Origin: Candidatus Omnitrophota bacterium
Lineage (GTDB): Bacteria; Omnitrophota; Gorgyraeia; 2-01-FULL-45-10
DNA: 64,000 bases
NCBI GenBank assembly: GCA_026387175.1
Contig: JAPLME010000012.1
Location: 69,849 to 133,848 of the forward strand
Direction: 5' to 3'
The notes under the pieces were generated by a model. It searched no databases, was not told where the DNA came from, and saw only the letters and a list, made by a program, of their open reading frames with translations. Positions within the stretch are counted from its first letter, which is position 1. Each line of letters opens with the position of its first letter. Shown piece after piece: positions 8,363-32,722 of the stretch. Made by a program: the position numbers and the translations under genes.

Positions 8363-8415
8363 GGCCGATGTCAGAGACATCGGCACTTAGCCTGTAATAC
8401 GGCTGAATAAACTTG
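8363..8415 (+). repeat. copy 1 of a conserved ~53-nt two-hairpin leader motif (recurs at 32619-32722)
   Basis: ggCCGATGTCagaGACATCGGcacttAGCCtgtaatacGGCTgaataaacttg, followed by GGAGGA SD and ATG 8424. Confidence 0.75.
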
Positions 8416-8423
8416 GAGGACGT

Positions 8424-8558
8424 ATGAATAGGAACAGAAAAAGCAATAAGGGCGGGACGAAAAAAAATAGAAATGATATTATCGCGAGCCGGAAAACTTG
8501 CACGGCCGACGGGACAGGTTTGTCGCATTACGTTCTGATGGACAAGAAGACCAAATAA
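8424..8558 (+). CDS. small basic peptide (44 aa), candidate RiPP precursor; below the ORF-track size cutoff
   Basis: ATG 8424 is 7 nt after GGAGGA. Translation MNRNRKSNKGGTKKNRNDIIASRKTCTADGTGLSHYVLMDKKTK, TAA at 8556. Only 4 nt from the radical SAM gene. Confidence 0.45.
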   Translation: MNRNRKSNKGGTKKNRNDIIASRKTCTADGTGLSHYVLMDKKTK

Positions 8559-8562
8559 GGTA

Positions 8563-9930
8563 ATGGATCGTTTTGTCAATTCAGGGGACGGCCCGGCATT
8601 CCAGCCGATAGAGATAGGCCATCCGCGTTATATTGGGCTCATAGATCCCGATACCGCATTTTGGTCATTGGTTGAACGCGGTAAACTATCTGATATTATG
8701 CGTGACAGTGAACTGTTGAGGGCCTACCGTAAGAAAAGGGAAAGTTTTCGCGCGGAGATGGATCGTCTCCGTTTTGGTCTGAGACCGTCCGCGGTATATT
8801 TTAATATTACCGAAAGATGTAATCTTAATTGCCGCTATTGTTATATTCCCGAACATATGCGCCGCAATGGCAGGCACATGTCCGAAAAGACCGTGATCGA
8901 TGCCCTTCAATTATTGAAAGCATACTTTAAAACGTCGGCCGGTAATGCCTCATTACCTAAAATAATATTTCACGGAGCCGAACCTCTGCTGAATAAAAAG
9001 GCATTGAGAGCCGCTATCGAAAAGTTTAGCGGGGACTTTATGTTTGGCATACAAACGAACACCGTTTTATTGGATGCCGAAATGGTTTCGTTTTTGAAAT
9101 CCAACAAAGTAAGCATCGGTATCTCACTTGATGGCCCGACGGCCGAAACAGTTAACAGGACCAGGGCGAGCTGGTCCGGCGAAGGTGTATTTCACAGCGT
9201 TATAGAGGCGATGAAGTTGCTCAGGGGTTATGATGCATGGAGCGCGATATGCACGATCACAACTGAAAATGTGCGCTCCCTTCCCGGTCTTACAGCTTTT
9301 TTACATAAGAACGAAGTTCCCACCTGTCTTTTAAATGTTGTTCGATGTACTCTTCCTTCCGCTCGAAAAATTAAACCTGCGGATGCGCTTGCCGCGCGAT
9401 ATTTTATTAAAGCTCTCGAGACGAGCCATAGACTTTATAAAGAGAGCGGCCGCAAGCTTGTGGTGGCTAACTTTGCCAATATACTGATAAGCATCCTTGC
9501 CCCAACAGCTCGCAGATTGATGTGCGATATCTCGCCGTGTGGGGGAGGAAGAAGCTTTTTTGCCTTAGTGCCAAACGGCGACATATTTCCCTGCAGCGAA
9601 TTTATCGGGTTGAAACGTTTTAAAGGCGGCAATATTTTTAAGGATAGTGTAAAAAATATTTTAAAAAGTGATCCATTTAAGCTGGTTACAGAAAGAAAAG
9701 TAGAGAAGATCGAACCATGCCGCCGATGCGCTATCCGGCATTTTTGCGGCTCGCCCTGTCCCGCCGAAGCGTATGAAATGAACGGCGGAATGAATAAAAC
9801 GGGTTCGTTCTGCGAATTCTATGAAGAACAGACCCGTTTTGCATTTCGGCTCATAGCGGATAACAGGCATGAAGCTTTTCTATGGGATGGCTGGGATAGG
9901 GGCACCAAAGAAATCTTTAATGTCACATAG
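8563..9930 (+). CDS. radical SAM enzyme with C-terminal SPASM/twitch domain (anSME-like peptide-modifying family)
   Basis: NITERCNLNCRYCY (CX3CX2C) at ~aa 85. C-terminal CDISPCGGG...CSEF...CRRCAIRHFCGSPCPAEAY (CX2CX5CX3C). ~85-aa N-terminal extension could be a peptide-recognition domain. Confidence 0.85.
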   Translation: MDRFVNSGDGPAFQPIEIGHPRYIGLIDPDTAFWSLVERGKLSDIMRDSELLRAYRKKRESFRAEMDRLRFGLRPSAVYFNITERCNLNCRYCYIPEHMRRNGRHMSEKTVIDALQLLKAYFKTSAGNASLPKIIFHGAEPLLNKKALRAAIEKFSGDFMFGIQTNTVLLDAEMVSFLKSNKVSIGISLDGPTAETVNRTRASWSGEGVFHSVIEAMKLLRGYDAWSAICTITTENVRSLPGLTAFLHKNEVPTCLLNVVRCTLPSARKIKPADALAARYFIKALETSHRLYKESGRKLVVANFANILISILAPTARRLMCDISPCGGGRSFFALVPNGDIFPCSEFIGLKRFKGGNIFKDSVKNILKSDPFKLVTERKVEKIEPCRRCAIRHFCGSPCPAEAYEMNGGMNKTGSFCEFYEEQTRFAFRLIADNRHEAFLWDGWDRGTKEIFNVT

Positions 9931-9995
9931 CCGCATTAAGCATAACCCATCGAAATTTATCTTGCATATTTTGAAAATTGGCAGTATTCTTGGGA

Positions 9996-10457
9996 ATGAT
10001 GAGTCACTTCTACTTACTAAACAAAAAAGGCTTTGCCCTTCTTGAGGTTTTAATAGGCGTCATCATTTTAAGTGTAGGCCTATTTACCGTAGGGGCTGTT
10101 TTTTTCGGAGAGTTTGGCACTATTAATAAGCTGAGCGAAACGCTGGTGGCTACCTTAGCGGTTCAGGAAGAAATCGATAAAATCAGGGCCCTGCCTTTTA
10201 ACAATATCGCCGCGTATACATGTTCAGGATATAACGCGGCGGATCCTATGTGCCCCTCCGGCTTTAAATATCTGGCAAATAAAAGCCCCGTCTGCACAGT
10301 ATTGGTTGACGGATGCGCAAACGCGGTTGATAATTTTAGCGGCGACGCAAATATTAAAAAAGTTTCAGTTACCGCGACCTGGAATTCTGCCTCAGGGAGA
10401 ATATTGTCAAAAAGCCTGGTAACTCTGATAACTTATCAGGGCATCGATAAGTGGTGA
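9996..10457 (+). CDS. prepilin-type N-terminal cleavage/methylation domain protein (pseudopilin/minor pilin)
   Basis: LNKKGFALLEVLIGVIILSV = G|FxLLE class III signal. Track start 9978 is a TTG. ATG at 9996. Confidence 0.7.
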   Translation: MMSHFYLLNKKGFALLEVLIGVIILSVGLFTVGAVFFGEFGTINKLSETLVATLAVQEEIDKIRALPFNNIAAYTCSGYNAADPMCPSGFKYLANKSPVCTVLVDGCANAVDNFSGDANIKKVSVTATWNSASGRILSKSLVTLITYQGIDKW

Positions 10458-10470
10458 AAACGAGGAAAAT

Positions 10471-11154
10471 TTGAATAAACGAAAGAGCGGATTTACAATG
10501 GTTGAGATTCAGATAGCGGCATTTATCGCTTCTATCATATTATTAGCCGCTGTTTCTTTGTACACGATGTATTGGCGGACTTTCGTAACGGACAGCGCTT
10601 ATCTGGACGTTTATTCAAGTTCAAGAATCGCGGTGGACCACATGGTAAGAGATATCAGGTGCGCGGCGCAAGTAGTGACGAACTATGGTTCTTATACGAC
10701 CACCGACAATACCATCGTTCTTCAGGTCCCTTCTATAGATAACTCGAACCCACCGATCACTATAAACTCTATAACCTCAGACACAAATCTTTATTACGAT
10801 TATATAATTTATACATTGATCTATAATAATAATCTGCAAAGCTACGATCTGTACAGAATTGTCCAAATAGACGGGAAGTTCACTACCGCCGGAGACTCGT
10901 ATTATCATAAAAACGGCAGGGTAAATGAAAATCGCGCCGTAGCCCACCATTGCGGCACTAATTCCGGAAACTTACTGACTTTCAGCTCCGGAAGCGTCGG
11001 TGGCACAACGTTATCACATGTTACATATCTGTCGGATGTCAATACCATAGGTATCTCTTTGCCGATTAATGAAAAAATGCTTTCTTTAAGCGGATCGGGA
11101 ACGAACACGGCGCAGATGATCCCGACAGCGGTAGTCAGGATGCGTAATAAATAA
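10471..11154 (+). CDS. prepilin-type N-terminal cleavage/methylation domain protein (pseudopilin/minor pilin)
   Basis: KRKSGFTMVEIQIAAFIASIILLAA. TTG start preceded by GAGGA. Confidence 0.7.
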   Translation: MNKRKSGFTMVEIQIAAFIASIILLAAVSLYTMYWRTFVTDSAYLDVYSSSRIAVDHMVRDIRCAAQVVTNYGSYTTTDNTIVLQVPSIDNSNPPITINSITSDTNLYYDYIIYTLIYNNNLQSYDLYRIVQIDGKFTTAGDSYYHKNGRVNENRAVAHHCGTNSGNLLTFSSGSVGGTTLSHVTYLSDVNTIGISLPINEKMLSLSGSGTNTAQMIPTAVVRMRNK

Positions 11155-11156
11155 AT

Positions 11157-12431
11157 ATGAATTCCAATAAACATAAAAATCCGGACGGCTTTATATTAGT
11201 TACCTCTCTTTTAATAGTAGCCATATTGCTTATACTGGTATCAGCCTGCATGGCCAGGCTTGTCACCGAATATGGGCTTGCGGCAAAATTTTATAATTCG
11301 ACCGCTGCCTTCGATTTGGGAGAAGTAGGATTAGAGCGGGCAATTTGGCATTACTTAAATAATAATCTTACCGGCTGGACTCCTTCGCCGGATCCGTCCC
11401 ACCCAGGTAATACACTATACACCCTTCCTCACCAGTTTCTTAAGGCGCATGTCGGAAGCGTCTATCTTAACATAGGGGAATACGACGCAAGCATTTCAAT
11501 TTCCGCCGATGGGACGGCTGCCGTTATCTCCGCTAATGGGTATGTGCCAAATTACTCATCATATAGCGCAAAAAGAACGTTGGGGGCTACATACAAAAAA
11601 TGGGGCGCTTTTACACACGCTGTCTCCAGCCTTCATAATATTACGATGAGCGGTCAGGCCAAAGCGGATAGCTATGATTCTTCGAAAGGGGCCTATAATT
11701 GTATATTATCGGGTGGGTCCAGAAATATCGGACAAAAAGGCAGTATGGCGTCTAACGGTTCGATAACCCTGAGCGGAGAAGTATATATCAATGGAGACGC
11801 GACTCCAGGATCCGGCCATCCATTTCCGGCCAGCCCCTCGCCTTCGACTTATATATCGGGTAAATACGGAACCATGTCGACCCCGATAACAGTTGATGCG
11901 GCTATGACTTCAGCCCTGGCTTCGACCATTGCCGCTACAAAAACAAGCAATAGCAACAGCGGTATCACCATTACTCATAACGGCACTACAACGCCTTACA
12001 CCGGAGGAAACAATCTTTCCGTAAGCGGCCAGGATGTAATGACAATACCCGGCGGCACATATTATTTTACAGCGATAAGCACGAGCGGCCAGGCGCAGAT
12101 TAATGTTACAGGGCCCTCAGTTATATATGTGGATGGCGGCAGTATAAATATTTCCGGGCAGGGAATTGTAAATAGCGGGCAGCCGAAAGATATGCAAATC
12201 TACTCTACAGGTTCTACTGTCAGTTTATCGGGTCAGGCCGCTGTTACCGGAGCCATATATGCCCCTTCCGCTACTATTACCCTGAGCGGACAGGAGAATT
12301 TTTATGGCTCTATTTTTTGCGGCTCCGATGTCGATAGCGGCCAAGCGGTGGTACATTATGATACTAGCCTGTCAAGCGTGACGCCATCTTTTGCGACGAA
12401 TGGAGTGACTTCCTGGGCGGATATAAAATAA
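11157..12431 (+). CDS. large PilX-like minor pilin / pseudopilin with Ser/Thr/Gly-rich beta-rich C-terminal region
   Basis: N-terminus NPDGFILVTSLLIVAILLILVSAC (PilX-N-like, no Glu5). 424 aa, S/T/G-rich. Confidence 0.5.
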   Translation: MNSNKHKNPDGFILVTSLLIVAILLILVSACMARLVTEYGLAAKFYNSTAAFDLGEVGLERAIWHYLNNNLTGWTPSPDPSHPGNTLYTLPHQFLKAHVGSVYLNIGEYDASISISADGTAAVISANGYVPNYSSYSAKRTLGATYKKWGAFTHAVSSLHNITMSGQAKADSYDSSKGAYNCILSGGSRNIGQKGSMASNGSITLSGEVYINGDATPGSGHPFPASPSPSTYISGKYGTMSTPITVDAAMTSALASTIAATKTSNSNSGITITHNGTTTPYTGGNNLSVSGQDVMTIPGGTYYFTAISTSGQAQINVTGPSVIYVDGGSINISGQGIVNSGQPKDMQIYSTGSTVSLSGQAAVTGAIYAPSATITLSGQENFYGSIFCGSDVDSGQAVVHYDTSLSSVTPSFATNGVTSWADIK

Positions 12432-12622
12432 GCTGATATTGCGCAATAAACATGATGATTCTCGATGCGCATTATTCTCTTTACAGGGGAAGAGCTCCAA
12501 GATACAATAAAACAAATTTAATATACCGCACTATGTTGTGCGGGTAGATACGTAATGAACGCAGGCGTTCACTTTGGCAAAGCAGATAAGCCAGATTGAG
12601 CGCTATTTTTTTGTCCAATTTA

Positions 12623-12648
12623 TATTCAATTGTGTACACAATTGAATA
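12623..12648. promoter_or_regulatory. 26-bp perfect palindrome 17 nt upstream of amt start (candidate operator)
   Basis: TATTCAATTGTGT|ACACAATTGAATA, followed by AAGGGAGGG SD and ATG 12665. Confidence 0.4.
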
Positions 12649-12664
12649 ACCACAAAGGGAGGGT

Positions 12665-13903
12665 ATGATGATAAATTCCGGTGACACGGCGTGGGTCCTG
12701 ATAGCTACCGCGCTCGTAATGCTTATGACTATCCCGGGCCTCGCGCTTTTTTACGGCGGCCTGGTGCGAAGGAAGAATGTCCTTGCTACCATGATGCAGT
12801 CTTTTTTTGTATTGTGCCTAATAAGCTTGCAATGGATATTGTTTGGGTATAGTCTATCCTTTGGGCCCGACAAATGGCACCTGATAGGGAACCTGTCATG
12901 GTTTGGCCTGAACGGTGTTGGCGCGAGCCCGAATGCCACTTATGCCGCGACCATTCCCCACATTCTCTTTATGGCATTTCAAATGATGTTCGCGGTAATC
13001 ACCCCCGGGCTTATAACAGGCGCATTTGCCGAAAGAATGAAATTTTCCACATATGTGGTCTTCACTTTATTGTGGGCAACCCTTGTATATAATCCTGTGT
13101 GCCACTGGATCTGGGGCGCCGGCGGATGGCTGGGCAAGATGGGCGTAATGGATTTTGCCGGAGGGCTTGTCGTGCATGTTACAGCGGGTTTTTCGGCGCT
13201 TGTATGCGCGCTGTATATGGGATCGAGAAGAGGGTATGGTAAGGAGCCCATGCCGCCGCATAATCTCCCATTGACCATTATAGGCGCCGGGCTTCTATGG
13301 TTCGGCTGGTTCGGATTTAATGCCGGAAGCGCGCTGGGAGCAAATGCTGTCGCGGCGACAACGTTCGTTGTAACCAATACAGCCGCCGCTACCGCCGCGC
13401 TTACCTGGATGCTGATCGAATGGAAAATTACCGGAAAACCCACCCTCCTCGGTGGAGCTACCGGCGCCGTAGCGGGGCTGGCGACCATAACTCCCGCGTC
13501 CGGCTTTGTGAGTCCGATTTCGGCTATTATCATCGGCATCGCGGCCTCCCTGATATGCTATTTTTCAGTCGCCGTGGTGAAGCTTAAATTCTCTTACGAT
13601 GACTCACTTGACGCGTTTGGCGTGCATGGCATCGGAGGGCTGGTCGGCGTTATCTTTACGGGAGCCCTTGCTCAGAAGATATTAAACCCCGCGGGCAACA
13701 ACGGCCTGTTCTTTGGGAACGTCCCACAGCTTGGCATTCAGGCATTCGGCTCATTAATTGTTATCATCTACTCTGTCGGCATGACATTCGCGATGCTTAA
13801 AATACTCGATCTCACCATGGGGCTCAGGGTGAGCGACGAGGAAGAGGTGATAGGCCTTGATATCACTCAGCACGAAGAGAGCGCATACACATTATTAGAC
13901 TAA
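12665..13903 (+). CDS. amt: ammonium transporter (Amt family)
   Basis: N-terminus [36 protein letters not shown] is the Amt signature. 11 TM. Followed by a PII gene. Confidence 0.9.
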
Positions 13904-13913
13904 GGAGAAAAAT

Positions 13914-14255
13914 ATGAAATTGATAATAGCCGTAATTCAGCCGCATAAGCTTGAAGATGTCATGCAGGAACTTGACAAGAGCGAGATCCATCTAAGGACC
14001 GTTTCCAATGTTCTGGGGTGCGGGAGGCAGAAGGGCCGGACGGAAGTATACCGCGGGAGAAAAGAGACGGGAAACCTTCTTAAAAAGGTCCGCATCGAGA
14101 TCGCCGTTAACGAAAAATTTGTCGAACCGGCTATAGCGGCGATAACGCGCGGCGCCAGGACCGGTAATATAGGCGACGGTAAGATATTTGTGCTGGATCT
14201 TGAGGAATGCGTAAGGATACGAACGAATGAAAAAGGCAGCGAAGCCATAGGGTAG
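13914..14255 (+). CDS. glnK: nitrogen regulatory protein P-II (GlnK, amt-linked)
   Basis: [16 protein letters not shown]...VLGCGRQKG...YRG...[11 protein letters not shown]; 113 aa; classic amt-glnK pairing. Confidence 0.9.
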
Positions 14256-14261
14256 AACCAT

Positions 14262-14924
14262 ATGCGCACTTTTGTTATAGGCGATATTCATGGTGCCTAT
14301 CAAGCGTTTTTGCAATGCTTGAAAAAGGCGGATTTCAACAAGAATAAGGATCATTTGATCTGTCTTGGCGATGTCTGCGATCGCGGGCCGCATGTTAAAG
14401 AATGCATCGATGAATTATTGAGCATCCAAAAGCGCACTTATCTTTTAGGTAATCATGATGCGTGGGCCCTGGACTGGGCCATTAAAGGTATATCTGTCAG
14501 GGAATGGCTGGAGCAGGGCGGCTCTGATACGATAGCTTCATATAAAGACGGTGGAATGCCTGTGGAACATATTCGGTTACTTGCCCAGGCGCCGTTATGG
14601 TTATTAGACAAAAACCGCCTGTTCCTTCATGCCGGGTTTGATGTAGATAATGGGCTGGAAGGCACCCCAAAGAATGTGATACTTTGGGATCGGGAGCTCC
14701 TCTGCAGGGCAAAATTATTACATCAGTCCTGCCCGGAATTTAAATTTGGCGGTTACGATGAAATATTTGTCGGGCACACCCCGACGTTGATATTCAATAA
14801 AGACACCCCTCAGAAATTCTGCAATGTGTGGGCTATCGATACCGGCGCCGTATGGAGCGGTAAATTAACGATAATGGATGTCGATACGAAAGAATACTGG
14901 CAATCAACCCCGGCAGCATTGTGA
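14262..14924 (+). CDS. metallophosphoesterase, PPP-family Ser/Thr phosphatase / ApaH-like
   Basis: GDIHG, GDVCDRGP, GNHD motifs in canonical order. Confidence 0.75.
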   Translation: MRTFVIGDIHGAYQAFLQCLKKADFNKNKDHLICLGDVCDRGPHVKECIDELLSIQKRTYLLGNHDAWALDWAIKGISVREWLEQGGSDTIASYKDGGMPVEHIRLLAQAPLWLLDKNRLFLHAGFDVDNGLEGTPKNVILWDRELLCRAKLLHQSCPEFKFGGYDEIFVGHTPTLIFNKDTPQKFCNVWAIDTGAVWSGKLTIMDVDTKEYWQSTPAAL

Positions 14925-14942
14925 TAGATTCTTCCTTAACTT

Positions 14943-14978
14943 ATTGACACATTTTCACCGTAGTAGTACCATATGAAT
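14943..14978 (+). promoter_or_regulatory. sigma70-like promoter candidate
   Basis: TTGACA, 17-nt spacer, TACCAT, about 12 nt before the receiver gene. Confidence 0.3.
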
Positions 14979-14989
14979 AGAGGGAATAT

Positions 14990-15364
14990 ATGAAGAAAAA
15001 GATAATGGTTATTGACGATGAAGAGGGTTTCACGGCACTGATCAAGACGACTCTTGAGGAAAGAGGAAATTACGAAGTCCGGACAGAAAATAACGCGTTG
15101 CTGGCAATTCCCGCCGTTCGAGAATTCAGGCCGGACCTGATATTGCTGGATATAATGATGCCGGGTGATATAGACGGCGCTGAAATAGCCAGAAGGATCG
15201 AAAACGATAGAAGTGTTAAAAATATCCCAATGGTATTTCTGACCGCGGTAGCGACGGGAGAAGAAGTGGAATCCGGAGGCGGTTTCATAGGCGGGCATCC
15301 TTTTATAGCCAAACCGGTAAACATAAAAAAACTTATCGAATATCTTGAAAAAAAGCTGTCATAA
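14990..15364 (+). CDS. stand-alone CheY-like response regulator receiver domain
   Basis: MVIDDEEG...DLILLDIMMPGDIDG...: phospho-acceptor Asp context. 124 aa. Confidence 0.8.
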   Translation: MKKKIMVIDDEEGFTALIKTTLEERGNYEVRTENNALLAIPAVREFRPDLILLDIMMPGDIDGAEIARRIENDRSVKNIPMVFLTAVATGEEVESGGGFIGGHPFIAKPVNIKKLIEYLEKKLS

Positions 15365-15371
15365 ATTTTAG

Positions 15372-23182: not shown

Positions 23183-23503
23183 ATGGCAACATATGATGAT
23201 TTCAAAAAATTAGAATTCAAAGTAGCAAAAATTAAAGACGTGGTCGAACATCCGAACGCCGACAGGCTTTATATCGTGACGGTAGATCTTGGCGATAAGA
23301 CTAAACAGGTGATCGCGGGCATCAGGAACACGTATAAAAAAGAAGATCTGGTGGGCCGCCAGGTGGTTGTGGTGGACAATTTGGATCCAGCGGTCCTGCG
23401 GGGAGTCGAAAGTCAGGGCATGATACTGGCTGCCTCCGACGAGAACGGCAGTTCGATAGTGACTTTGGCCAGAGAAACGAAATTGGGAAGTATAGTAAAA
23501 TAG
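23183..23503 (+). CDS. tRNA-binding domain protein (CsaA/Trbp111-like, MetRS C-terminal-domain family)
   Basis: FKVAKIKDVVEHPNADRLYIVTVDLGDKTKQVIAGI...VVDNLDP...GVESQGMILAA: OB-fold tRNA-binding signature. Confidence 0.8.
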   Translation: MATYDDFKKLEFKVAKIKDVVEHPNADRLYIVTVDLGDKTKQVIAGIRNTYKKEDLVGRQVVVVDNLDPAVLRGVESQGMILAASDENGSSIVTLARETKLGSIVK

Positions 23504-25108: not shown

Positions 25109-26941
25109 ATGGAAATAAGCGATATGAAGAGACAGATCCTGGAGAAGCTCAAAGAGAAGCGCTCGAGCGCTCCGGCCGTTGTCGATACCGGGAAACCGGC
25201 TATAAGCCGGGAGGAGATATTAAACGCGATAAAGAGGCCGTTCGGCACATTGCGGCCCGAAGGACGTATTGTCATAAAGAAAGACGAGGAGCTTTTAAAA
25301 CGATACGAGAGTCTTAAGGCAGAGCTGGATCGGAAGACCGCCGTTGTTCAGGATCTGGAGAGGCGCTTGAAAGAGGAAAAAGGCCGCGCAGCCGCATTAG
25401 CCGAGACCGTGAAAGCCAGAGATGATAAGGCCGCCCATGCCAGCAGGTTATCCAAAGAGCTTGAAGATATCAGGAAGATCAGCGAGGAACAGCGCTTAAG
25501 ACACGAGAACCTGCAGGCCGAGCACAAGAAAGCGACGCTGAGCAGGGACGAGACGGCGAAGCTGCTCAAGATACTGCGTTCCGAGGCCGATGTGAAGGAG
25601 CGGACCATTCGCGACCTCCAGAAAAAAGTAACGAGGCTGGATGAGCTGGAAGAGATGCTTCGAGTAAAGAATAATAAGACGGCGGAGACAGCGAAGGTAT
25701 ATAAAGAACTTGAAGAAGCCAAGAAGCTGAACGATGAATACCGGGCGAAGATAGAAAGCGTTCGGGCGGAAAAGCGCGATGAAGAGGCGTTGCGGAGCGA
25801 AAAGATCAAAGACGAGCTGGTGCGTAAAGACGCGTTTGTACTGGATCTGCAAAAGAAATTCGCGACCGAGATCGATGAAATTACGAAGGACCGGGACAGG
25901 ACCGCATCGAATGTGGAATCGTTAAGATCAAAGCTTTACGCCGCGACAAAAGAGATAAAAGAGCAGAGCGTTAAGATGTCGCAGCTTGAAGAAGCCTCGA
26001 GGGCTAAGGACAAAAGGATACTGGAGACGGAGAAGCTGCATGCGGCGCTTGATCTCGCGAAGAGCGAGATGGAATCGAAGCTTCTGGCGGCCGAAAATGA
26101 TAATAAAAATCTCAATGAGAGGTACGCCAAGTCAAATGATGAGCTTGGGGCCGGCATAACCAGGATAGAGCAGGCCGAGAAATCTTATAAGGAGCTTGAG
26201 GCCTCTTATGGCGAGATCAGTTCCGAGCTCCAGGCAAGCCTTCGCGGCAAGAAAGAGCTCGAGGCTAAACTTGAGCAGGCGCATATAGAGCTGGAAGCGA
26301 AGACGACCCGCCTTGCGGAGGCCGATAAATTATATAAAGAGCTCGACTCAAGCGTGCGCGAGTTGACATCGAAACTTCAGGCAAACCAGCACCACACTAA
26401 AGAGGTGGAGGCCTCTAATGAAGATCTTGCGCTCAGGCTTTCAAACGCTAATCGCGATAGAAAAGAGTTTGAGGCGCGCATAACCGAGCTCGAATCAGAA
26501 GCCGAAGCAAAAACAGTTCGTCTTGAGAGCGCGGATAAATTACACAAGGAACTGGAATCTATAATAAAGGACGCTGAAGCGAAGCTTCAGGCGAGCCAGC
26601 ACAGGGTCGGTGATCTGGAAAAGGAAACGGCTCTTCTTGCGGAATCGTTGAAGGCCTCCAATCTTAAGCTGAAAGAAGTTGAGGATGAAGCGAAGAGTGA
26701 GATGGAGAAGCTTCGCGCGGAGCTGGGACCTCTCAAGAATACCGTTATACAAAAAGAGAAGAATGAGCTTGAGCTTAGAAGTTCAATAGAACATCTAGAG
26801 GTCGAGATGCAGGCGCGCGATTCTAAGATCGAAGGAGATCTTAGATATACCGAAAAGGTCATAAAAGAGATCAGCGAACTTCGTAAGAAAGTGGCGGCCC
26901 TTCAGAGGCAATCCGAGAGGACAAAGAGTGCAGGCGCTTAA
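25109..26941 (+). CDS. 610-aa coiled-coil protein with internal ~60-aa repeats
   Basis: Almost entirely E/K/L/A/R-rich heptads. Repeated EAKT[TV]RL..ADKL[YH]KEL..S...KLQA.QH blocks. 14-nt overlap with the ParA-like gene. Confidence 0.6.
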   Translation: MEISDMKRQILEKLKEKRSSAPAVVDTGKPAISREEILNAIKRPFGTLRPEGRIVIKKDEELLKRYESLKAELDRKTAVVQDLERRLKEEKGRAAALAETVKARDDKAAHASRLSKELEDIRKISEEQRLRHENLQAEHKKATLSRDETAKLLKILRSEADVKERTIRDLQKKVTRLDELEEMLRVKNNKTAETAKVYKELEEAKKLNDEYRAKIESVRAEKRDEEALRSEKIKDELVRKDAFVLDLQKKFATEIDEITKDRDRTASNVESLRSKLYAATKEIKEQSVKMSQLEEASRAKDKRILETEKLHAALDLAKSEMESKLLAAENDNKNLNERYAKSNDELGAGITRIEQAEKSYKELEASYGEISSELQASLRGKKELEAKLEQAHIELEAKTTRLAEADKLYKELDSSVRELTSKLQANQHHTKEVEASNEDLALRLSNANRDRKEFEARITELESEAEAKTVRLESADKLHKELESIIKDAEAKLQASQHRVGDLEKETALLAESLKASNLKLKEVEDEAKSEMEKLRAELGPLKNTVIQKEKNELELRSSIEHLEVEMQARDSKIEGDLRYTEKVIKEISELRKKVAALQRQSERTKSAGA

Positions 26942-27761
26942 CGGCAAACTGGACAAGATGTTTGGATGGTGGAAGGGAGAGTTTTCCGTCACAAGCGGCA
27001 AGACCGCCAAGAAACAGCTTTTCCTGAACTATAAGGGCGGTACCGGCAAAACCTCTATATCCGCGGCATATGGATATTATCTTGCGATGACGGGAAAGAG
27101 AGTGCTGATGATAGACCTGGACGCCCAGGCGCACCTGACCACCTGTTTAAACCAGAAGACCGCGCGCCATGAGAAGAGCCTGTACAGCGTGCTGATACGT
27201 TCCGCGCGGATCTCGGACGTCATAGTCGGCACGTCTCTGCCTACGCTGAAGCTTGCGCCGTCATCAATATCGCTCTCGGCTCTAGAGATGCCTTTATTCA
27301 AGATGCCGTACAGAGAATTCAGGTTACGCCGCGCGATAAAAGAGATAGAGCGCGAATTCGACTTCATAATAATAGACTCGAGCCCCAATATAGGGCTCGT
27401 AAGCCTGAACGCTATACTCGCCTCGAACGAGATACTGGTGCCTCTTCTCGCGGATTTTCTCTCGTTTCACGGGCTCAAGATACTTATGGAGACGCTCGCT
27501 TCGGTGCAGGACGATTTTAATTTTTATTTCAAAAAAATTAATATATTTTTAAACAGGTTTAACCCCGGCTACTCTATATGCAATGAATGCCTGGAAGCCG
27601 TGCGTAAGTATTATCCGGGTTATGCGCTCAAGACGGTAATAGAAGAATCGCATGAGATGATGGATGCCTCGAGCTTCGGAAAATCGATATTCGAGTTCAG
27701 TCCGGATTCGAAAGCCGCCCAAAATATTAAAGATCTTGTGCGGGAAGTCAACGGAATCTAA
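26928..27761 (+). CDS. ParA/MinD-family P-loop ATPase
   Basis: Deviant Walker A NYKGGTGKTSISAAYGYYLAMTGKRVLMIDLDAQ. Walker B-like FDFIIIDSSP. Confidence 0.8.
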   Translation: MQALNGKLDKMFGWWKGEFSVTSGKTAKKQLFLNYKGGTGKTSISAAYGYYLAMTGKRVLMIDLDAQAHLTTCLNQKTARHEKSLYSVLIRSARISDVIVGTSLPTLKLAPSSISLSALEMPLFKMPYREFRLRRAIKEIEREFDFIIIDSSPNIGLVSLNAILASNEILVPLLADFLSFHGLKILMETLASVQDDFNFYFKKINIFLNRFNPGYSICNECLEAVRKYYPGYALKTVIEESHEMMDASSFGKSIFEFSPDSKAAQNIKDLVREVNGI

Positions 27762-27797
27762 TCTGGTTAGAGACTCAAGAATTCAAGGGAGATCGTT

Positions 27798-28250
27798 ATG
27801 AAAACAAAGTTCGATGATAACGTCGCGCAGAATATACCGGTAACTAAAAATTCCGCCGAGCCGGAGCTGCCATGGAAGCTTTCCGAATCGGAGATAACCC
27901 GGATAGAAGCTACCGACGAGGAACATAAGAGCGCGATAACGGCCCCCCCGCTGCATGTGAGGGCGATATTCGTGGTGCTTTTGGTGCTCACCATATTCGT
28001 TGTGATACTGAACAGCGTAGTCAATATGACCATCGATAACGCCGAGATGAGGCTTAATATGTCAAAAAAAGAGAAACAGGTCGTCTCTATACAGACTGCG
28101 CTGACGAATGCCGCGAGCGAAAAAGCGGCCCTGAGCGATACCGCCGCAAAGCTTGAAAAACGCGTCAGTGATCTTAACGCTCAGAAAGAACTCTACACCG
28201 CGGTCATAGAGACATTGACAAAAAAGACGGATGATACACAGACCAACTAA
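27798..28250 (+). CDS. membrane-anchored coiled-coil protein
   Basis: GGGAGATCG..ATG. Single TM IFVVLLVLTIFVVILNSVV. C-terminal heptads. Confidence 0.45.
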   Translation: MKTKFDDNVAQNIPVTKNSAEPELPWKLSESEITRIEATDEEHKSAITAPPLHVRAIFVVLLVLTIFVVILNSVVNMTIDNAEMRLNMSKKEKQVVSIQTALTNAASEKAALSDTAAKLEKRVSDLNAQKELYTAVIETLTKKTDDTQTN

Positions 28251-28275
28251 AACCTAAACTAAACCCCGGGGGTCT

Positions 28276-30879
28276 ATGTTATTTAGAAGACTTGCTTTAT
28301 TTATAATTATATCCTTTCTGGGAATTTCGGCGGCATTCTGCCAGAACCTTGCATGGGAAGATCTCAGTAAACAATCATGGGAGTCCGCTAAAAAGGGTAA
28401 TTTCCCGGAAGCCATTGATGTCGCGATCAAAGCGCTGAATGTCGCCACCGAGCGGTATGGCCCGCGGCATAATAACGTCATAATATCCCTGAACCAGATA
28501 GCGTCTATATATAAGGCGCACGAAAGATACAGGGAGGCGGAACCGTTTTTAAAGAAAGCGCTCGCCGTGAGAGCTCTTTTGGTAAGTGACCCTATTTCTA
28601 GAGAGGATTACGCGGACATATATACGGCCATGAAGAACCTTTACGATATATATAAACTTCAGAATAAATTAGCGCGGGCGGGAAAAGTTTTGAATCGCGC
28701 TATAATGATCGAAGAGAAGTTCGCGTTCAGGAACAATTCCGGCGTTGAATCGGACATAAGAGAGCTGATATCCATATATGAGGCTCAGGATAAGCCGCAG
28801 AGGACAGAGCCTCTATATAAGAAGCTGATGGAGCTGGAAGAGAAACGGTATGGCGCTCATAGCGCCGAGGTCACCAATACGATGAATAATCTGGCTTCCG
28901 CTTACAGGGCCATGAAAAAATATTCGCAAGCCGAACCGCTTCTCAGGTCCGTAATAGAATCGGCCGAGAGTGTTCACGACGGCCCCGCCAGCCAGAATCT
29001 CCCGACATATCTTAATAACCTCGGGACAGTCTATTTCTATCAGGGGAAACTTGCCGAAGCGGAACCGCTTTTTAAGAGAGCGCTTGATATAGATGAGAAG
29101 GCCCTGGGAGCAGCTTCACCCGACATCGTCACAGACCTGAATAACATTGCCACTCTTTATTCATATCAAAAAAAATATCAGGAAGCGGAAGAGCTTTATA
29201 ACAGAGTCCTCGATATAAATGAGAAGGCGTACGGCGCCGACAGCGCCAAACTGATAAAATATATGAATAATATCGCGGCGATATTAACGTACCAGAAGAA
29301 ATATAATGACGCGGAAGGTCTTTATAAGAAAACGCTGGAGATAAGCGAGAAGTCGTTAGGGCCCGATCATTCCACCACAGCCATAGCTCTAAATAATCTG
29401 GCGTTTGTGTATGAAGCCAGAGAAGAATACGCCGAGGCCGAAAGGCTTTATTCCAGATCGGCCCTGATATGCGAGAAGGACCTCGATAAAAATTACTCTA
29501 CGATGAAGACAGCTATTAATAACCTCGTCGCTATCTACAAGATCCAGAACAGGACGCCCGAGGCCGAACAGGCTCTGCGCAGATTGATCGCCGCGCGCGA
29601 AGGCGCTAAAAAAAAAGATAATTCCGATTCCATCCCTGCCATAAAAGAGCTGATCGCGTTATACGCCTCCCAAAATAATTTTAAGATGATGGAAGACAGC
29701 TACCTGAAACTTATACTTATGGAAGCGAATGTCTTTGGCCCCGAAAGCGCGGAGCTTATTAACACAATGAACGAGTTGGCGGGTATTTACAGGAGCCGGA
29801 AAAAAATGTCCGAGGCGGAACCGCTGCTTAAAAGGGTGGTGGCGATAGCTCAAGACGTCGAAGGGCTGCCAGGGTCGAGCCTCTCAATCTATCTTAATAA
29901 CCTCGGCGCTTCATATTTTTATCAGGGCAAATTCGCTGAAGCCGAGCCCATTCTTAAAAAAGCGCTTGTCCTGGACGAAAAAGCGCTGGGCAAAGACAGC
30001 TCCGAGATGATAACGCCTCTCAATAACCTTGCCACCGTGTATTCCTATCAGAAGAAATACAGAGAAGCGGAAGCTCTTTACAATAGGGTTCTTGAGATAT
30101 CCAAAAAGACGTTAGGCCCGGAGAACATCGGCACAAGCTCAGCGCTCAATAATCTGGCCTATCTTTATGAGTCGGAGGAAAATTACGACGAAGCTGCGAA
30201 GTTTTATAACAGTGCCGTAGAGATATGCGAAAAAGACATGAAGGGCAATTATTCCGAACTTAAGTATTCGCTCAACGGCCTCGCCAACATTTACAGAAGC
30301 CAGGGCAAATATGAAGATGCCGAATCGTATTTGAAGAAAATCCTCGCGATAGAGGAAAAGGTCGCGGGAGCCCAGAGCGCGGATCTAGCGGATACGTTGA
30401 ATTCTCTCGCCAGGCTTTACAGGGCGCAGGGGCGTTATTCGGAAGCGGAGGCTGCGCTCAAGAACGCTATAGAGATAGGCGAAAAGGCCCTGGGGGCGAA
30501 TAGCCCGTCCATGAAACCTTACCTGAACAATCTTGCTACAGTATATTTTTATCAGAAAAGGTATGATGACGCGGAGCCGCTCCTTGAAAAGGTCCTTGAT
30601 ATAGATGAACAGTCAACGGGCATGGACAGCGCCGGCCTTATAAAAGACCTGAATAATCTGGCGGCGGTGTATTCGAGCCAGAAAAAATTCGGAGACGCCG
30701 AGTTACTTTACGCAAGGGCGGCATATATATGCCAGAATTTCAGCAATGACCCGAGAGAGCTTTCCAGCGTGCTCGAAAACATGGCCAATATGTACGAGCT
30801 GAGCGATGATTCAGGAAGAGCTGATACATTACGGAAGCAATCCGAAGCAATAACCGCAAAAATAGCAACTCCGCAGTAA
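28276..30879 (+). CDS. secreted 867-aa tetratricopeptide (TPR_10/12, kinesin-light-chain-like) repeat protein
   Basis: Signal peptide, then more than 15 repeats of NNLA..Y..Q.KY.EAEPL..RAL.I.EKALG. Confidence 0.8.
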   Translation: MLFRRLALFIIISFLGISAAFCQNLAWEDLSKQSWESAKKGNFPEAIDVAIKALNVATERYGPRHNNVIISLNQIASIYKAHERYREAEPFLKKALAVRALLVSDPISREDYADIYTAMKNLYDIYKLQNKLARAGKVLNRAIMIEEKFAFRNNSGVESDIRELISIYEAQDKPQRTEPLYKKLMELEEKRYGAHSAEVTNTMNNLASAYRAMKKYSQAEPLLRSVIESAESVHDGPASQNLPTYLNNLGTVYFYQGKLAEAEPLFKRALDIDEKALGAASPDIVTDLNNIATLYSYQKKYQEAEELYNRVLDINEKAYGADSAKLIKYMNNIAAILTYQKKYNDAEGLYKKTLEISEKSLGPDHSTTAIALNNLAFVYEAREEYAEAERLYSRSALICEKDLDKNYSTMKTAINNLVAIYKIQNRTPEAEQALRRLIAAREGAKKKDNSDSIPAIKELIALYASQNNFKMMEDSYLKLILMEANVFGPESAELINTMNELAGIYRSRKKMSEAEPLLKRVVAIAQDVEGLPGSSLSIYLNNLGASYFYQGKFAEAEPILKKALVLDEKALGKDSSEMITPLNNLATVYSYQKKYREAEALYNRVLEISKKTLGPENIGTSSALNNLAYLYESEENYDEAAKFYNSAVEICEKDMKGNYSELKYSLNGLANIYRSQGKYEDAESYLKKILAIEEKVAGAQSADLADTLNSLARLYRAQGRYSEAEAALKNAIEIGEKALGANSPSMKPYLNNLATVYFYQKRYDDAEPLLEKVLDIDEQSTGMDSAGLIKDLNNLAAVYSSQKKFGDAELLYARAAYICQNFSNDPRELSSVLENMANMYELSDDSGRADTLRKQSEAITAKIATPQ

Positions 30880-31000
30880 AGCGCCAGTTAAAGCCACTGT
30901 TAACCATGAAAAAGTAAGCTTTATATCCCATCTCCTTAAATAGTCTTGTGATATACTTCTAATTGGGTTAAGTAATTATAAAGTTAACCAATTTAAAAGT

Positions 31001-31381
31001 ATGGATAAAATAAAATTATCGATTTCCATATTATTGATAGTAGCCGTCGCAAGCTCCCTGGGCTTTGCGGAAATATTTGAGACGGGTATTGCGAGTTATT
31101 ACTCTTATGAATGCGCGAAATCTCCCATGGCAAATGGTAAGCCATTCGATCCGGAGAAGAGGACATGCGCGAGCTGGTTTTACGATTTTGGGACGGTGTT
31201 ATCCGTGCAAAGCCTCGATACCGGACGCTCTACGTATGTTGTTGTGACAGACCGCGGGCCGAATAAAAGGCTTGTGAAAAAAGGAAGAGTGATAGACTTA
31301 TCAAAGAGAGCATTCGAAGATATCTGCGATTTAAAGAAAGGTTTTACACGAGTTATCATCACTGTAAAGACCCGCCTATAG
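31001..31381 (+). CDS. RlpA-like double-psi beta-barrel (DPBB) domain protein
   Basis: GIASYYS...G...TCASW...GTVLSV....GRSTYVVVTDRGP....RVIDLSKRAFE.I matches the RlpA/DPBB_1 pattern. Signal peptide. Confidence 0.7.
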   Translation: MDKIKLSISILLIVAVASSLGFAEIFETGIASYYSYECAKSPMANGKPFDPEKRTCASWFYDFGTVLSVQSLDTGRSTYVVVTDRGPNKRLVKKGRVIDLSKRAFEDICDLKKGFTRVIITVKTRL

Positions 31382-31402
31382 ATAATAATATTATCAAATC
31401 TT

Positions 31403-31437
31403 GACAATACTATATTCATTAGGTATACTTAATTCAA
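31403..31437 (+). promoter_or_regulatory. sigma70-like promoter candidate
   Basis: TTGACA, 17 nt, TATACT, about 55 nt upstream of ATG 31492. Confidence 0.3.
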
Positions 31438-31491
31438 AAGTTAGTTACTAACTTCAGGAAGTTATGGTTTTTTATATATGGAGTTAAGAAA

Positions 31492-32616
31492 ATGAAAATA
31501 GAGAGAAATTATTTTTTCACCTGTCAAGAGCTGAATGACAAAGAAAAAAGGAATTTGTTAATATACGACTTGATAAGAAAAAAAGGCGTGATATCCCGGG
31601 CGGAGATTACTAAAGCCACCGGGATAAACGCGGTATCGGTCTCCAATTACGTAAATAATTTTATTGAAAAGAAGATGGTTCTCGAAAAAGGATTTGATGT
31701 ATCCTCCGGCGGAAGAAAGCCGGAACTCGTTGAGCTCGATTCCGAATCGAACTACGTTATAGGTATAAATATCGGTAAGGCTAATATACGGAGCGTGGTC
31801 GCGGATATCGGATTAAGCGTGAAAGCCAGGAAGCAGGTTTCCAGGCCATCGGACCGGGGAATGTCCGGAGAGATCGTTAAATTAATAGAAGAGATCATCC
31901 GCGATTCCAAGATCAGCGCTTCAAATATAAAAGCTATAGGACTGGGCGTATCGGCCGCAAAATTTGATCAGGCCGCCGGCGTAATCAAAAAAGAGACCGG
32001 CATAGACGCGTATGCAGGTCCTTCCGCTGTGTGCGCGGCTTTCGCGGAGAAGCGCTTTAATAAGGCCGCGGAAAACTTCGAGAATATGTTATATATATAT
32101 TCGGACGTCGGCGAAGGCGTTATGACGCGCGGCGAAGCGTATCTGAGCGCGTCGGAAGATGCGGAGCTTTTGGACGGGAAGCTCAGGTACTTAAGGCCAT
32201 GGGATGATTATTTAAGCATAGTGGAGAGCGCGAAGCGCGAAGTGGCCAGAGGCGTGGGGACCAAAATCGTGAGCCTGGCCAGCGGAAGAATGGATAACAT
32301 AACAAAAGAAGTAGTAGTAGCTGCCGCGAAAGCCGATGACGAAGTCGCGCTTAACATAGCGTTCGGCGTCGGTATAAACCTGGGACTAAGGATAGCGTAT
32401 CTAATCAATCTTTTCACCCCCGAAGTTATAGTGATAGGGGACGGCCTCCAGGATACCGGCGATATAATATTCATGCCGCTCAAAAAGATGATAGAGCGGC
32501 TATCTTATAGAAACAATATGAAAAATCTGAAGATAATATTGGGCGCTTTCGGTGAAGACGCGCCTGAAATCGGAGCGGCATCGCTCGCTGTCAGAGAAAT
32601 ATTTCTTAAAGCGTAA
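31492..32616 (+). CDS. ROK-like transcriptional regulator / sugar-kinase-fold protein with N-terminal wHTH
   Basis: N-terminal LLIYDLIRKKGVISRAEITKATGINAVSVSNYVNNF (MarR-like wHTH), followed by an actin-like ATPase fold (VIGINIG...). Canonical ROK Zn motif not evident. Confidence 0.55.
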   Translation: MKIERNYFFTCQELNDKEKRNLLIYDLIRKKGVISRAEITKATGINAVSVSNYVNNFIEKKMVLEKGFDVSSGGRKPELVELDSESNYVIGINIGKANIRSVVADIGLSVKARKQVSRPSDRGMSGEIVKLIEEIIRDSKISASNIKAIGLGVSAAKFDQAAGVIKKETGIDAYAGPSAVCAAFAEKRFNKAAENFENMLYIYSDVGEGVMTRGEAYLSASEDAELLDGKLRYLRPWDDYLSIVESAKREVARGVGTKIVSLASGRMDNITKEVVVAAAKADDEVALNIAFGVGINLGLRIAYLINLFTPEVIVIGDGLQDTGDIIFMPLKKMIERLSYRNNMKNLKIILGAFGEDAPEIGAASLAVREIFLKA

Positions 32617-32618
32617 AA

Positions 32619-32722
32619 GGCCGATGTCGGAGACATCGGCACTTAGCTTGTAATGCGGCTTAATAAACTTGACCGATGTCGGAGACATCGGCACTTAGCC
32701 TGTAATATGGCTGAATAAACTT
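32619..32722 (+). repeat. two tandem copies of the ~53-nt two-hairpin leader motif (copies 2 and 3)
   Basis: 32619-32671 and 32672-32722 each read CCGATGTCggaGACATCGG-cactt-AGCYtgtaatRYGGCT-Kaataaacttg. The last copy is followed by GGAGGA and ATG 32734. Confidence 0.75.

Follow-up and report, generated by a model that had tools for sequence, protein, structure and literature searches.

A 52-nt two-hairpin unit inserted at Shine-Dalgarno sequences in Omnitrophota, probably a non-autonomous mobile element

The 64,000-nt stretch of DNA analysed here, which we call the window, comes from a Candidatus Omnitrophota bacterium (contig JAPLME010000012.1 of assembly GCA_026387175.1, positions 69,849 to 133,848 of the forward strand). 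It contains three copies of a 52-nt unit with two hairpins (Table 1): one directly in front of cbpA, which encodes the 44-aa precursor of a ribosomally synthesised and post-translationally modified peptide (RiPP), and two in tandem between a ROK-family gene and the gene for a 117-aa Cys-rich protein. All the genes near the units lie on the plus strand. The copies had been picked out in an earlier note made from the sequence alone, with coordinates that are off by at most 1 nt. A search of the window for the 27-nt core pattern, allowing up to three mismatches, gives three matches, compared with none in 100 dinucleotide-preserving shuffles, and a repeat finder groups the three units as a single family (D3). 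With a covariance model (R1) built from 126 members of the family described below, the best match in the whole window outside the units reaches 15.4 bits with the filters off.

Each unit begins with G/A-CC-NNNN-TC, continues with a loop of 3–4 nt and a complementary arm ending in GGC, and these together make up hairpin 1, a stem of 9 bp where the earlier note had counted 8. There follow a linker, ACUU, a second hairpin of the form AGCY-loop-RGCU, and a tail, KAAUAAACUUG. The termini of the unit are G/A-CC on the 5' side and AAUAAACUUG on the 3' side, the final base being G, and the tail stretch within the unit reads UAAUAAACUU. Unit 3 starts with A instead of G. Both hairpins fold as had been proposed, and stretches of 72–126 nt that include units have folding z-scores of −4 to −5 relative to shuffles. 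At both sites in the window the last G of the unit is at the same time the first G of the Shine-Dalgarno (SD) sequence GGAGGA, and the two ATG codons that the earlier note placed behind it are where it put them, 8–10 nt past the end of the unit. Unit 2 begins 3 nt past the stop codon of the ROK gene, so that units 2 and 3 fill the spacer between that gene and the next.

Table 1. Coordinates of the units, their parts and the adjoining features in the window.
Feature	Position (nt)	Strand	Description
Cobalamin riboswitch aptamer	8099–8279	+	Rfam RF00174, 71.6 bits (gathering threshold 31.5)
Intrinsic terminator	8291–8334	+	20-bp stem followed by T-run; terminator scan
Unit 1	8364–8415	+	52 nt; R1 67.5 bits
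Unit 1, hairpin 1	8364–8384	+	9 bp, AGA loop
Unit 1, linker ACUU	8385–8388	+	
Unit 1, hairpin 2	8389–8404	+	
Unit 1, tail GAAUAAACUUG	8405–8415	+	
SD sequence GGAGGA	8415–8420	+	First G is the last base of unit 1; cbpA start codon at 8424–8426
cbpA	8424–8558	+	44-aa modified-peptide (RiPP) precursor; NCBIfam TIGR04164 (cobo_pep), 57.8 bits (cutoff 35)
ROK-family gene	31492–32616	+	Pfam
Unit 2	32620–32671	+	52 nt; first of head-to-tail pair; R1 67.6 bits
Unit 3	32672–32723	+	52 nt; second of head-to-tail pair; R1 63.9 bits
SD sequence GGAGGA	32723–32728	+	First G is the last base of unit 3; start codon of the 117-aa gene at 32734–32736
117-aa Cys-rich protein gene	32734–33087	+	N-terminal CxxC motif; pI 9.65

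The origin of the unit can be read from orthologous loci with and without it. Such loci were retrieved through their proteins and not through the element, and four of them allow a comparison (retrieved stretches are designated by L and a number). At the cbpA locus the window reads ...gtccttttttatttttatattcaataaaccaaaaaGG[52 nt]AGGacgtATG, i.e., aaaaaGG[unit]AGGacgtATG, while L140, whose maturase CbpB is 88% identical, reads ...gtctttttttattgtcgagttcaataaaccaaaaaGGGAGGgcgtATG, the site itself being aaaaaGGGAGGgcgtATG / caataaaccaaaaaGGGAGGgcgtATG; L141 is also empty. The cobalamin riboswitch and its terminator, which precede unit 1 in the window, are found in the empty orthologs L140 and L141 as well: they are a pre-existing leader, and unit 1 was inserted further downstream. 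Between the ROK gene and the gene for the 117-aa protein the empty sites read gcgTAAaacGGAGGagaataatATG (L124–L127), gcaTAAcggtagagaGAGGTGgaatATG (L133–L136) and gcgTAAgaaagaGAGGTagggtATG (L138, L139). Of the filled versions, the window's is gcgTAAaaGG[2 units]AGGaaaagtATG and that of L045 is gcgTAAaGG[1 unit]AGGtggatATG, and L044 has two units of another subtype. At the mreB locus a unit stands between a short leader and GGAGA in L047 and is missing in L145, L146 and L148, whose MreB proteins are 97%, 94% and 91% identical, respectively; the promoter TTGACA-17-TAATAT is kept in all four. The empty L145 comes from the same metagenome-assembled genome (MAG) as L002, which carries a unit at nusB. 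A fourth pair, L114 (filled) and the window gene at 23183 (empty), has the same layout at lower resolution.

Excising exactly the 52-nt units restores [A-rich]GGAGG in each case: for example, TAAaaG[units]GAGG corresponds to TAAaacGGAGG, and aaaaaG[unit]GAGG to aaaaaGGGAGG. The filled and empty sites reveal no target-site duplication beyond one ambiguous G, and the 5' end of the unit, GCCNNNGTC, and its 3' end, AATAAACTTG, are not complementary, i.e., there are no terminal inverted repeats. At the level of sequence, the comparisons show that the unit is an insertion at the SD, in sense orientation to the downstream gene, and that sites were gained or lost between close relatives.

The family extends beyond the window. 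A scan of a genome collection for hairpin 1 plus CACTT finds one complete unit in another Omnitrophota MAG (L002), directly before the SD of nusB. For metagenomes we used a pattern with just three fixed parts, namely GGCACTTAGC, the tail and the outer stem of hairpin 2, and with free sequence 3' of the unit. It yields 115 stretches with 153 copies in 121 distinct arrays, which are single in 80 cases, double in 36, triple in 3 and quadruple in 2; in each of the 41 multi-unit arrays the units follow one another head-to-tail every 52–53 nt. Note that such ascertainment makes the linker, the tail and the outer stem of hairpin 2 look more conserved than they are, tandem neighbours alone escaping the bias, and that density and phyletic range are estimated from fragments and not from complete genomes.

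Among the 115 arrays with enough downstream sequence, 100 have a start codon that opens an open reading frame (ORF) of at least 30 codons 7–14 nt past the terminal G, and in 89 (77%) this start is combined with an SD-like 4-mer (GAGG, GAGA, GGGG or GGAG) abutting that G. At 40,000 random positions in the same loci the corresponding frequencies are 12.7% and 0.7%, and on the antisense side a comparable start is seen in only 8 of the 115 arrays. Start codons most often lie 8–11 nt past the end of the unit. What had been suggested from three copies, a position exactly in front of the SD and start codon on the sense strand, thus recurs across the family. The flanks of all arrays share a profile in which five upstream positions have 50–68% A, followed by G, the unit, and G-A-G-G. 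On the upstream side two situations recur: approximately 40 arrays begin 0–7 nt past the stop codon of an ORF on the same strand, and many others (e.g., L047, L041, L010 and L060) lie ∼10–45 nt past the −10 box of a TTGACA-17-TATAAT promoter. The unit appears from this layout to be neither promoter nor terminator, but a transcribed spacer that fills most of a 5'-UTR (untranslated leader) or of an intercistronic region.

The genes behind the units have little in common. The 97 distinct downstream proteins match 126 Pfam families with at most three members per family, and they include NusB, L21, FtsH, MreB, PanB, CobT, GAPDH, IlvC, DUF2582, DUF2934 and pilin-like proteins. The isoelectric point (pI) exceeds 10 in 6% of these proteins, whose median length is about 176 aa, and 33% of them are acidic.

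With regard to copy number, the window holds two arrays in 64 kb, and at least six loci come from one 830-kb contig, which carries several arrays and whose MreB has only Omnitrophota among its named close homologs; these densities suggest tens of copies per genome. A search with R1 of approximately 340 kb from relatives that were chosen by protein and not by element finds no unit, and the distribution is therefore patchy: the element occurs in a subset of Omnitrophota genomes.

Some of the arrays have unusual surroundings. In L048 a composite module is duplicated before two paralogous genes of ∼340 aa (3020–3230 and 4290–4490); besides a partial unit tail and a full unit it includes a promoter-like site, TTGACA-17-TATATT, which draws its TTG from the terminus of the unit, and a short leader with a terminator-like hairpin; in L054 a unit directly precedes a third paralog of these genes. 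We considered whether L048 might contain an autonomous parent element, but the arrays, 1.27 kb apart, flank the promoter-leader modules of the paralogs and not a transposase. In L012 (248–1090) units are found on both sides of the gene for a bacterial RNase P RNA (RF00010, 174.7 bits, minus strand, 974–426): on its 5' side there is a divergent array of two units, and a single one follows ∼130 nt past its 3' end on the same strand. In L019 (150–275, minus strand) a unit abuts the first 35–40 nt of a tRNA-like sequence, with acceptor and D arms, of which the rest is missing; this fragment may be a remnant of an integration site. It is also the sole case that could have spoken for an RNA 'punctuation' signal next to tRNAs, an idea we dropped, because the tRNA in L019 stops after its 5' half and no gene is called there by ARAGORN or Rfam.

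The alignment of 126 distinct units bears out the folded structure. Changes on both sides are found in all nine pairs of hairpin 1, for which covariation had been named as the check in the earlier note, with stems such as GAUGUC/GACAUC, GAGGUC/GACCUC, GAUAUC/GAUAUC and UAUGUC/GACAUA. The number of doubly changed cells is 89 compared with 24 ± 4 in shuffled controls, none of 500 shuffles reaches as high a value, and registers slid along hairpin 1 are only 24–43% paired. Hairpin 2 has three outer pairs that the search pattern prescribed, and inner pairs that vary as C-G/U-G (88/25) and A-U/G-U/G-C (66/37/6). Because the wobble pairs form only on the sense strand, this is the strand that folds. 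The same two features, covarying hairpins and G-T wobble on one strand, are equally expected for transposons that move as single-stranded DNA. The pattern of substitutions, which had earlier been taken to indicate a structured RNA rather than a mobile element, therefore fails to separate the two, and the four filled and empty comparisons show insertion.

The units fall into subfamilies with linked diagnostic positions. In the majority subfamily, TC (81 of the 126 units), U-C lies opposite C-U at pairs 4 and 5 of hairpin 1 (GCCUCGGUC...GACCUCGGC), and this internal loop is retained while the inner four pairs covary. The TC arm goes together with a T in the tail in 68 of 78 units, compared with 25 of 48 among the rest (Fisher p = 2e-5). 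The loop of hairpin 1 is GGA in 64 of the distinct units and AGA, UAAA, UGA, GGU, etc. in the others; according to the flank profiles the SD usually contains GGA too. Loop 2 is TGTAAT in the three window units and in L060, and in no other sampled unit. A heterodimer in which a UCGACC/GGUCUC unit comes after a UAAA-loop unit is found before rplU, serA and a third gene, so that the same combination of two unit types is shown to stand before at least two different genes (rplU and serA). Strict homogenisation within genomes was considered and rejected, since one 830-kb contig carries several hairpin-1 types. At the site shared by the window and L045 the units are not of the same hairpin-1 type, and neither loop 2 nor the copy number agrees. 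As they read in the alignment, such signs of turnover are the marks of copies that derive from a few source copies and move as DNA.

We consider it probable, though well short of certain, that the unit is a non-autonomous mobile element which targets and regenerates the SD and is co-transcribed into 5'-UTRs and intercistronic spacers. The pre-insertion site reads [A-rich]G^GAGG, with AAAGGAGG as a candidate integration target. The insertions share a single orientation and sit at the SD's 5' edge, where the unit's last G restores GGAGG, and the downstream gene keeps a functional ribosome-binding site (RBS) with an A/U-rich tract in front of it. Since the target is rebuilt, a further unit can enter, which explains the head-to-tail arrays and their 52-nt period. 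Judging from the position of the units, they would be co-transcribed either as an intercistronic spacer (0–7 nt past the stop codon) or as part of a 5'-UTR (∼10–45 nt past a sigma-70-type −10 box). Mobilisation would be in trans, by an enzyme that reads the folded single strand in the HUH/Y1 'peel-and-paste' manner of IS200/IS605 and of the REP-associated tyrosine transposases (RAYT; REP, repetitive extragenic palindromic). The anatomy of the element suggests single-strand mobilisation of the HUH/Y1 type with low confidence; it would account for covarying stems, wobble on one strand and the lack of terminal inverted repeats and target duplication, as well as for scar-free empty sites and the fixed orientation. 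Other site-specific systems may move it instead. For genes co-oriented with replication, we infer, the sense strand is the lagging-strand template.

A more specific version can be formulated, which we hold only tentatively and think less likely than its alternatives taken together: an SD-homing transposable element that recognises GGAGG, possibly by anti-SD-like complementarity or as single-stranded DNA of the lagging-strand template, enters in sense, makes no duplication and rebuilds the site from its own terminus. It would act as a near-neutral 'portable 5'-UTR', and one subfamily, with CCUC in both arms of hairpin 1, would perhaps have been co-opted to mask the SD.

What the unit does to the messenger can be approached by partition-function folding, which we applied to 104 natural contexts and to the corresponding reconstructed empty sites. 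For all contexts the predicted accessibility of the SD is 0.43 compared with 0.48 for the empty sites when 30 nt of upstream context are included, and 0.41 compared with 0.42 for 120 nt; with no gain in any of these averages over the 104 contexts, a translation insulator or enhancer that opens the SD was rejected. The subfamilies behave differently. In perfect-stem units, the type found in the window, hairpin 1 has a stability of −14 to −16 kcal/mol and the predicted accessibility is 0.56, compared with 0.57 for the empty sites; these units are predicted to leave the SD unchanged. Hairpin 1 of the TC type is weaker, −7.8 kcal/mol, and in the minimum-energy fold its 5' GCCUC pairs with GAGGU of the SD. 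The predicted accessibility is then 0.39 compared with 0.45 for single units and 0.33 compared with 0.53 for arrays, and the model thus predicts that the TC subfamily, with its anti-SD-like CCUC, partly masks the SD. If the unit follows a stop codon, the terminating ribosome would cover the 5' arm, and in the TC type this could free the SD and preserve translational coupling. In promoter-proximal units hairpin 1 lies within a few nt of the predicted 5' end of the transcript, and a hairpin at the 5' end is expected to stabilise mRNA against 5'-end-dependent decay.

On the minus strand, hairpin 1 and the flanking A/T-rich complement score as an intrinsic-terminator-like site at 8364–8384 and 32672–32692, the T-tract being supplied by the A-rich leader in the former and by the AAUAAACUUG tail of the preceding unit in the latter. 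Given this score, each insertion may also create a block to antisense transcription. The antisense ORFs 8211–8579 and 32500–32694 run opposite to the riboswitch, cbpA or the element, and it is therefore reasonable to regard them as artefacts, as the earlier note did.

Several observations weigh against a mobile element, and some of them are also what would be expected if the host had selected the unit as a cis-acting RNA module, i.e., a 52-nt leader kept because the mRNA needs it, with its insertional origin secondary. Such a module could be bound by an RNase or an RNA-binding protein of global reach, or could serve as a signal for processing or stabilisation, and would define a post-transcriptional regulon; a CsrA-like protein that binds GGA in the loop of hairpin 1 and again in the SD ∼42 nt away is one example, and the frequent GGA loop (64/126) would suit it. 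No mobilising gene came to light: a tblastn search of 1.2 Mb of loci with IS608 and IS200 TnpA sequences, a weak test, matched no RAYT or TnpA gene, and no full-length parent element with the same ends was seen there. There are no decayed copies: R1 scores are either at least 45 or below 28 bits, and all but two full-length units score at least 58. Hardly any variation is seen in the unpaired linker CACUUAG or in the tail UAAUAAACUUG, less than in the stems, which covary. The units of the window are ∼80–88% identical to units at other loci, at least as conserved as the surrounding sequence, for which window and L045 have 74% identity across the 2.4 kb that span their shared site. Lack of decay, a conserved linker and tail, and the conservation of the units also fit purifying selection on a host function, as do, for an RNA module, the invariably sense orientation to the gene, the persistence of the TC/TC internal loop while the inner 4 bp covary, and the predicted pairing of TC-type units with the SD. 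Further points against mobility are that some 10–20% of arrays do not adjoin an SD and have instead a promoter-like site using the TTG of the unit, a hairpin, or the tRNA fragment; that the subfamily in the window lacks the CCUC motif that might pair with GGAGG; and that gain, as opposed to precise loss, is something we infer at the sites that differ. An RNA module by itself is nevertheless hard to reconcile with downstream genes that share no function, with close relatives that lack the unit at the same genes (MreB 97% and CbpB 88% identical), or with whole relatives that have none in 20-kb samples. The loops (GGA, AGA, UAAA, UGA, GGU) vary too much for a GGA-dependent binder to serve all copies, predicted SD accessibility is not improved, and no trans-acting factor was identified. 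We therefore regard an RNA module as unlikely, though it is the most serious of the alternatives and is compatible with a mobile origin.

The remaining explanations fare worse. The approximately 40 arrays that begin 0–7 nt past a stop codon on the same strand, together with the stability of hairpin 1 in perfect-stem units, would fit a REP-like 3' element of the upstream gene, which protects against 3'-exonucleases or insulates cistrons as enterobacterial REP sequences and bacterial interspersed mosaic elements (BIME) do, and which adjoins the SD only incidentally because genomes are compact. However, a large share of arrays has no ORF end on the same strand within 10 nt upstream, and many of these (L047, L041, L010, L060) lie behind a promoter with no upstream cistron at all. 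What is fixed is how far the SD and start codon lie from the unit's 3' end, and the distance to the upstream stop is explained by the overlap of stop codon and original SD context in compact operons (TAAGGAGG, UAAGGAGG). Two hallmarks of REP are also absent. An insulator of this type, the fallback in the earlier note, was nearer the mark than its other proposals in pointing to REP-like sequences, but a GTAG motif and alternating orientation are not found; we consider a 3' element quite improbable. A leader specific to small, highly basic nucleic-acid-binding proteins, autoregulatory or a target for small RNAs, has still less in its favour. Both products in the window are small and basic; the first has a pI of 10.5, in keeping with the description of both as extremely basic (pI well above 10), and the second, at 9.65, does not reach it. 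Tabulating the downstream genes of the whole family turns up many unrelated ones, as detailed above, few of them with strongly basic products. The 44-aa product, a RiPP precursor and not an RNA-binding protein, is under the control of a cobalamin riboswitch, and orthologs of both window genes do without the unit. The association with basic proteins is a coincidence of this window, and an autoregulatory leader is very hard to credit. We give equally little weight to a portable promoter that supplies −35 and −10 elements to the downstream gene. In about six arrays the terminal CTTG does provide the TTG of a TTGACA-17-TATAAT-like site (L048 twice, L012, L053, L094, L122), but the unit has no sigma-70 hexamers within it, transcripts that started inside it would lose the SD, and many units lie between cistrons or past a consensus promoter that is conserved upstream of filled and empty sites alike.

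Other candidates could be set aside directly. Neither at gathering nor at permissive thresholds does Rfam support assignment of the unit to a known RNA family: at gathering thresholds only Cobalamin and two tRNAs are matched in the whole window, and the only permissive match of the unit is P26, on the opposite strand, with 21.5 bits compared with a gathering threshold of 36. A collection of viral contigs gave no matches that would indicate phage or plasmid origin. A CTTG target of the IS91 type is at odds with the empty sites, which contain no CTTG. The earlier judgement that the repeats are not CRISPR-like stands.

Among described systems the closest analogue of the unit is, from its description, the Neisseria REP2 class. 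REP2 and the Borrelia plasmid inverted repeat (IR) are upstream repeats that carry a promoter, a complete RBS and an ATG (Delihas 2011, PMC3184786). As with the Omnitrophota unit, their copies are interspersed and lie in sense immediately upstream of many unrelated genes, two stem-loops are found close to the 5' end, terminal inverted repeats are lacking, and there is no kinship with classical REP (PMC3184786). Compared by description, the Omnitrophota unit differs in being 52 nt long without promoter or ATG, in stacking head-to-tail, and in being inserted into a pre-existing SD. It contributes only the first G of the SD, where REP2 and IR contribute an RBS, and the sequence past its terminal G varies (GAGG, GAGA, GGGG or GGAG).

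REP/RAYT and IS200/IS605 systems are characterised by a conserved GTAG, alternating orientation and >100 copies per genome (REP) and by stem-loop recognition (PMC2817692). The unit resembles REP/BIME-RAYT and IS200/IS605 in being short and hairpin-forming without terminal inverted repeats or sizeable target duplication, and in its covarying stems, strand specificity and scar-free empty sites. Unlike REP/BIME it has no 5' GTAG and instead starts with G/A-CC at the foot of the stem, after an A-rich tract and G; its arrays never alternate in orientation (41/41 head-to-tail), and there are probably tens, not hundreds, of copies per genome. The two hairpins of the unit are unlike, and its target is a functional motif, the SD, which also sets it apart from REP/RAYT systems. 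In IS608 ∼19 nt separate the cleavage site from the hairpin, whereas hairpin 1 of the unit abuts the left boundary. A minimal element of the IS200/IS605 type would have no terminal inverted repeats or target duplication, subterminal hairpins and a fixed orientation at a short target, all of which the unit has; the fit is largely on negative features, and these are necessary but not sufficient for membership.

Marine Beggiatoaceae, cyanobacteria and Bacteroidetes have direct repeats of the heptamer TAACTGA upstream of start codons (PMC4679880). Like the unit they are tandem, forward and just before the start codons of functionally unrelated genes; their copy number varies between strains, and a post-transcriptional action has been proposed (PMC4679880). 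The heptamers are unstructured, usually replace the SD and end ∼1 nt from the start codon, whereas the Omnitrophota unit is a structured 52-mer that preserves the SD. Classical bacterial MITEs (transposable elements of miniature size with inverted repeats), such as Correia, Nezha and RUP, have terminal inverted repeats and target-site duplications and insert in either orientation. They share with the unit small size, non-autonomy and filled and empty orthologous sites, and they are co-transcribed and can alter the expression of adjacent genes (PMC3184786); the unit differs in having neither terminal inverted repeats nor target duplication, and a single orientation.

Rickettsia palindromic elements (RPE) insert in frame into genes (PMC10969869). 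We observe something similar in GC-rich MAGs, including Lindowbacteria, which have a ∼63-nt element, GATCCGG-CCGATGTCGGAGACATCGG-CACTT-GGGGCGTCGGAGACGC-TGATCCGG, that shares hairpin 1 plus CACTT, and an exact 24-mer, with the window units (L003 631–654, L005 7370–7393, L006 1330–1353, L007 3259–3282, L008 6937–6960). These GC-rich relatives are located, like RPE, inside long ORFs, to which they would add the peptide PMSETSALGASETLIR, and in L006 the ORF is a CobT-like gene. Because long open frames arise easily in GC-rich genomes, the intragenic reading is insecure. The Omnitrophota units, unlike RPE, are extragenic and targeted to the SD. Overall, we classify the unit with the small non-autonomous interspersed elements, among which it is set apart by the targeting and regeneration of the SD.

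The genes around the two sites are of some interest in themselves. Behind cbpA follows a radical-SAM/SPASM gene for its maturase, CbpB (NCBIfam TIGR04163, 660 bits), and the pair (8424–9930) is under the riboswitch-terminator leader (8099–8334). The CbpB sequence matches with 100% identity a protein from a 'Candidatus Omnitrophica bacterium' MAG. The cbpA gene is kept in L140–L144, and the C-terminus of CbpA is conserved across the retrieved orthologs as ...RKTC(T/S)(A/V)DGTGLSHYVLMDKK(T/A)K; in L142–L144 the riboswitch is absent upstream of cbpA/cbpB. The 117-aa protein has no match in Pfam or NCBIfam. It has 173 homologs, all the named ones from Omnitrophota, and from these matches the protein is conserved in, and specific to, this phylum. 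Its gene opens an efflux cluster of OEP (TolC-like), HlyD-like and two RND permease genes, the latter being tandem paralogs at 36427–39615 and 39680–42838, after the OEP and HlyD-like genes. The ROK gene, the 117-aa gene and the efflux cluster are syntenic across many Omnitrophota contigs (L124–L139). In L133–L135 LAGLIDADG-like and GIY-YIG ORFs occur among housekeeping and efflux genes (e.g., L133 2557–5211 and 13245–13565), and one GIY-YIG ORF of that relative lies between the membrane-fusion gene and the RND gene, which suggests homing-endonuclease-type insertions in these genomes.

Downstream of the efflux cluster, an ORF of >6,900 codons with a signal-like N-terminus occupies 43165–64000 on the plus strand and runs past the end of the window. 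It contains internal repeats, e.g., at 56115–56329 and 53243/55721. Its homolog in L041 has a 52-nt unit in the 5'-UTR behind a consensus TTGACA-17-TATAAT promoter; we did not use the start of this giant gene as a clean empty site, because the N-termini in the window and L041 are too diverged to align. Another ORF, of 867 aa at 28276–30879, has at least nine copies of a 126-nt (42-codon) periodic repeat (families D1 and D2).

Literature searches and reviews of small bacterial repeats and MITEs gave no repeat that lands on an RBS and repairs it, and nothing of the kind for Omnitrophota. For the discovery of RNA motifs the unit is a caution, since a mobile element can yield covariation, strand specificity and a fixed position before start codons. 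If the masking of the SD by the TC subfamily is true, it could bring back translational coupling, or adjust expression in dozens of unrelated genes. If the targeting is true, the units are natural cassettes of hairpin, A/U-tract and SD that can be tested for their effects on translation and mRNA stability. It would also mean a new target-site logic for mobile DNA, with a safe harbour before most genes, and would explain how 5'-UTRs and intercistronic spacers change in steps of 52 nt between close relatives in this uncultivated phylum.

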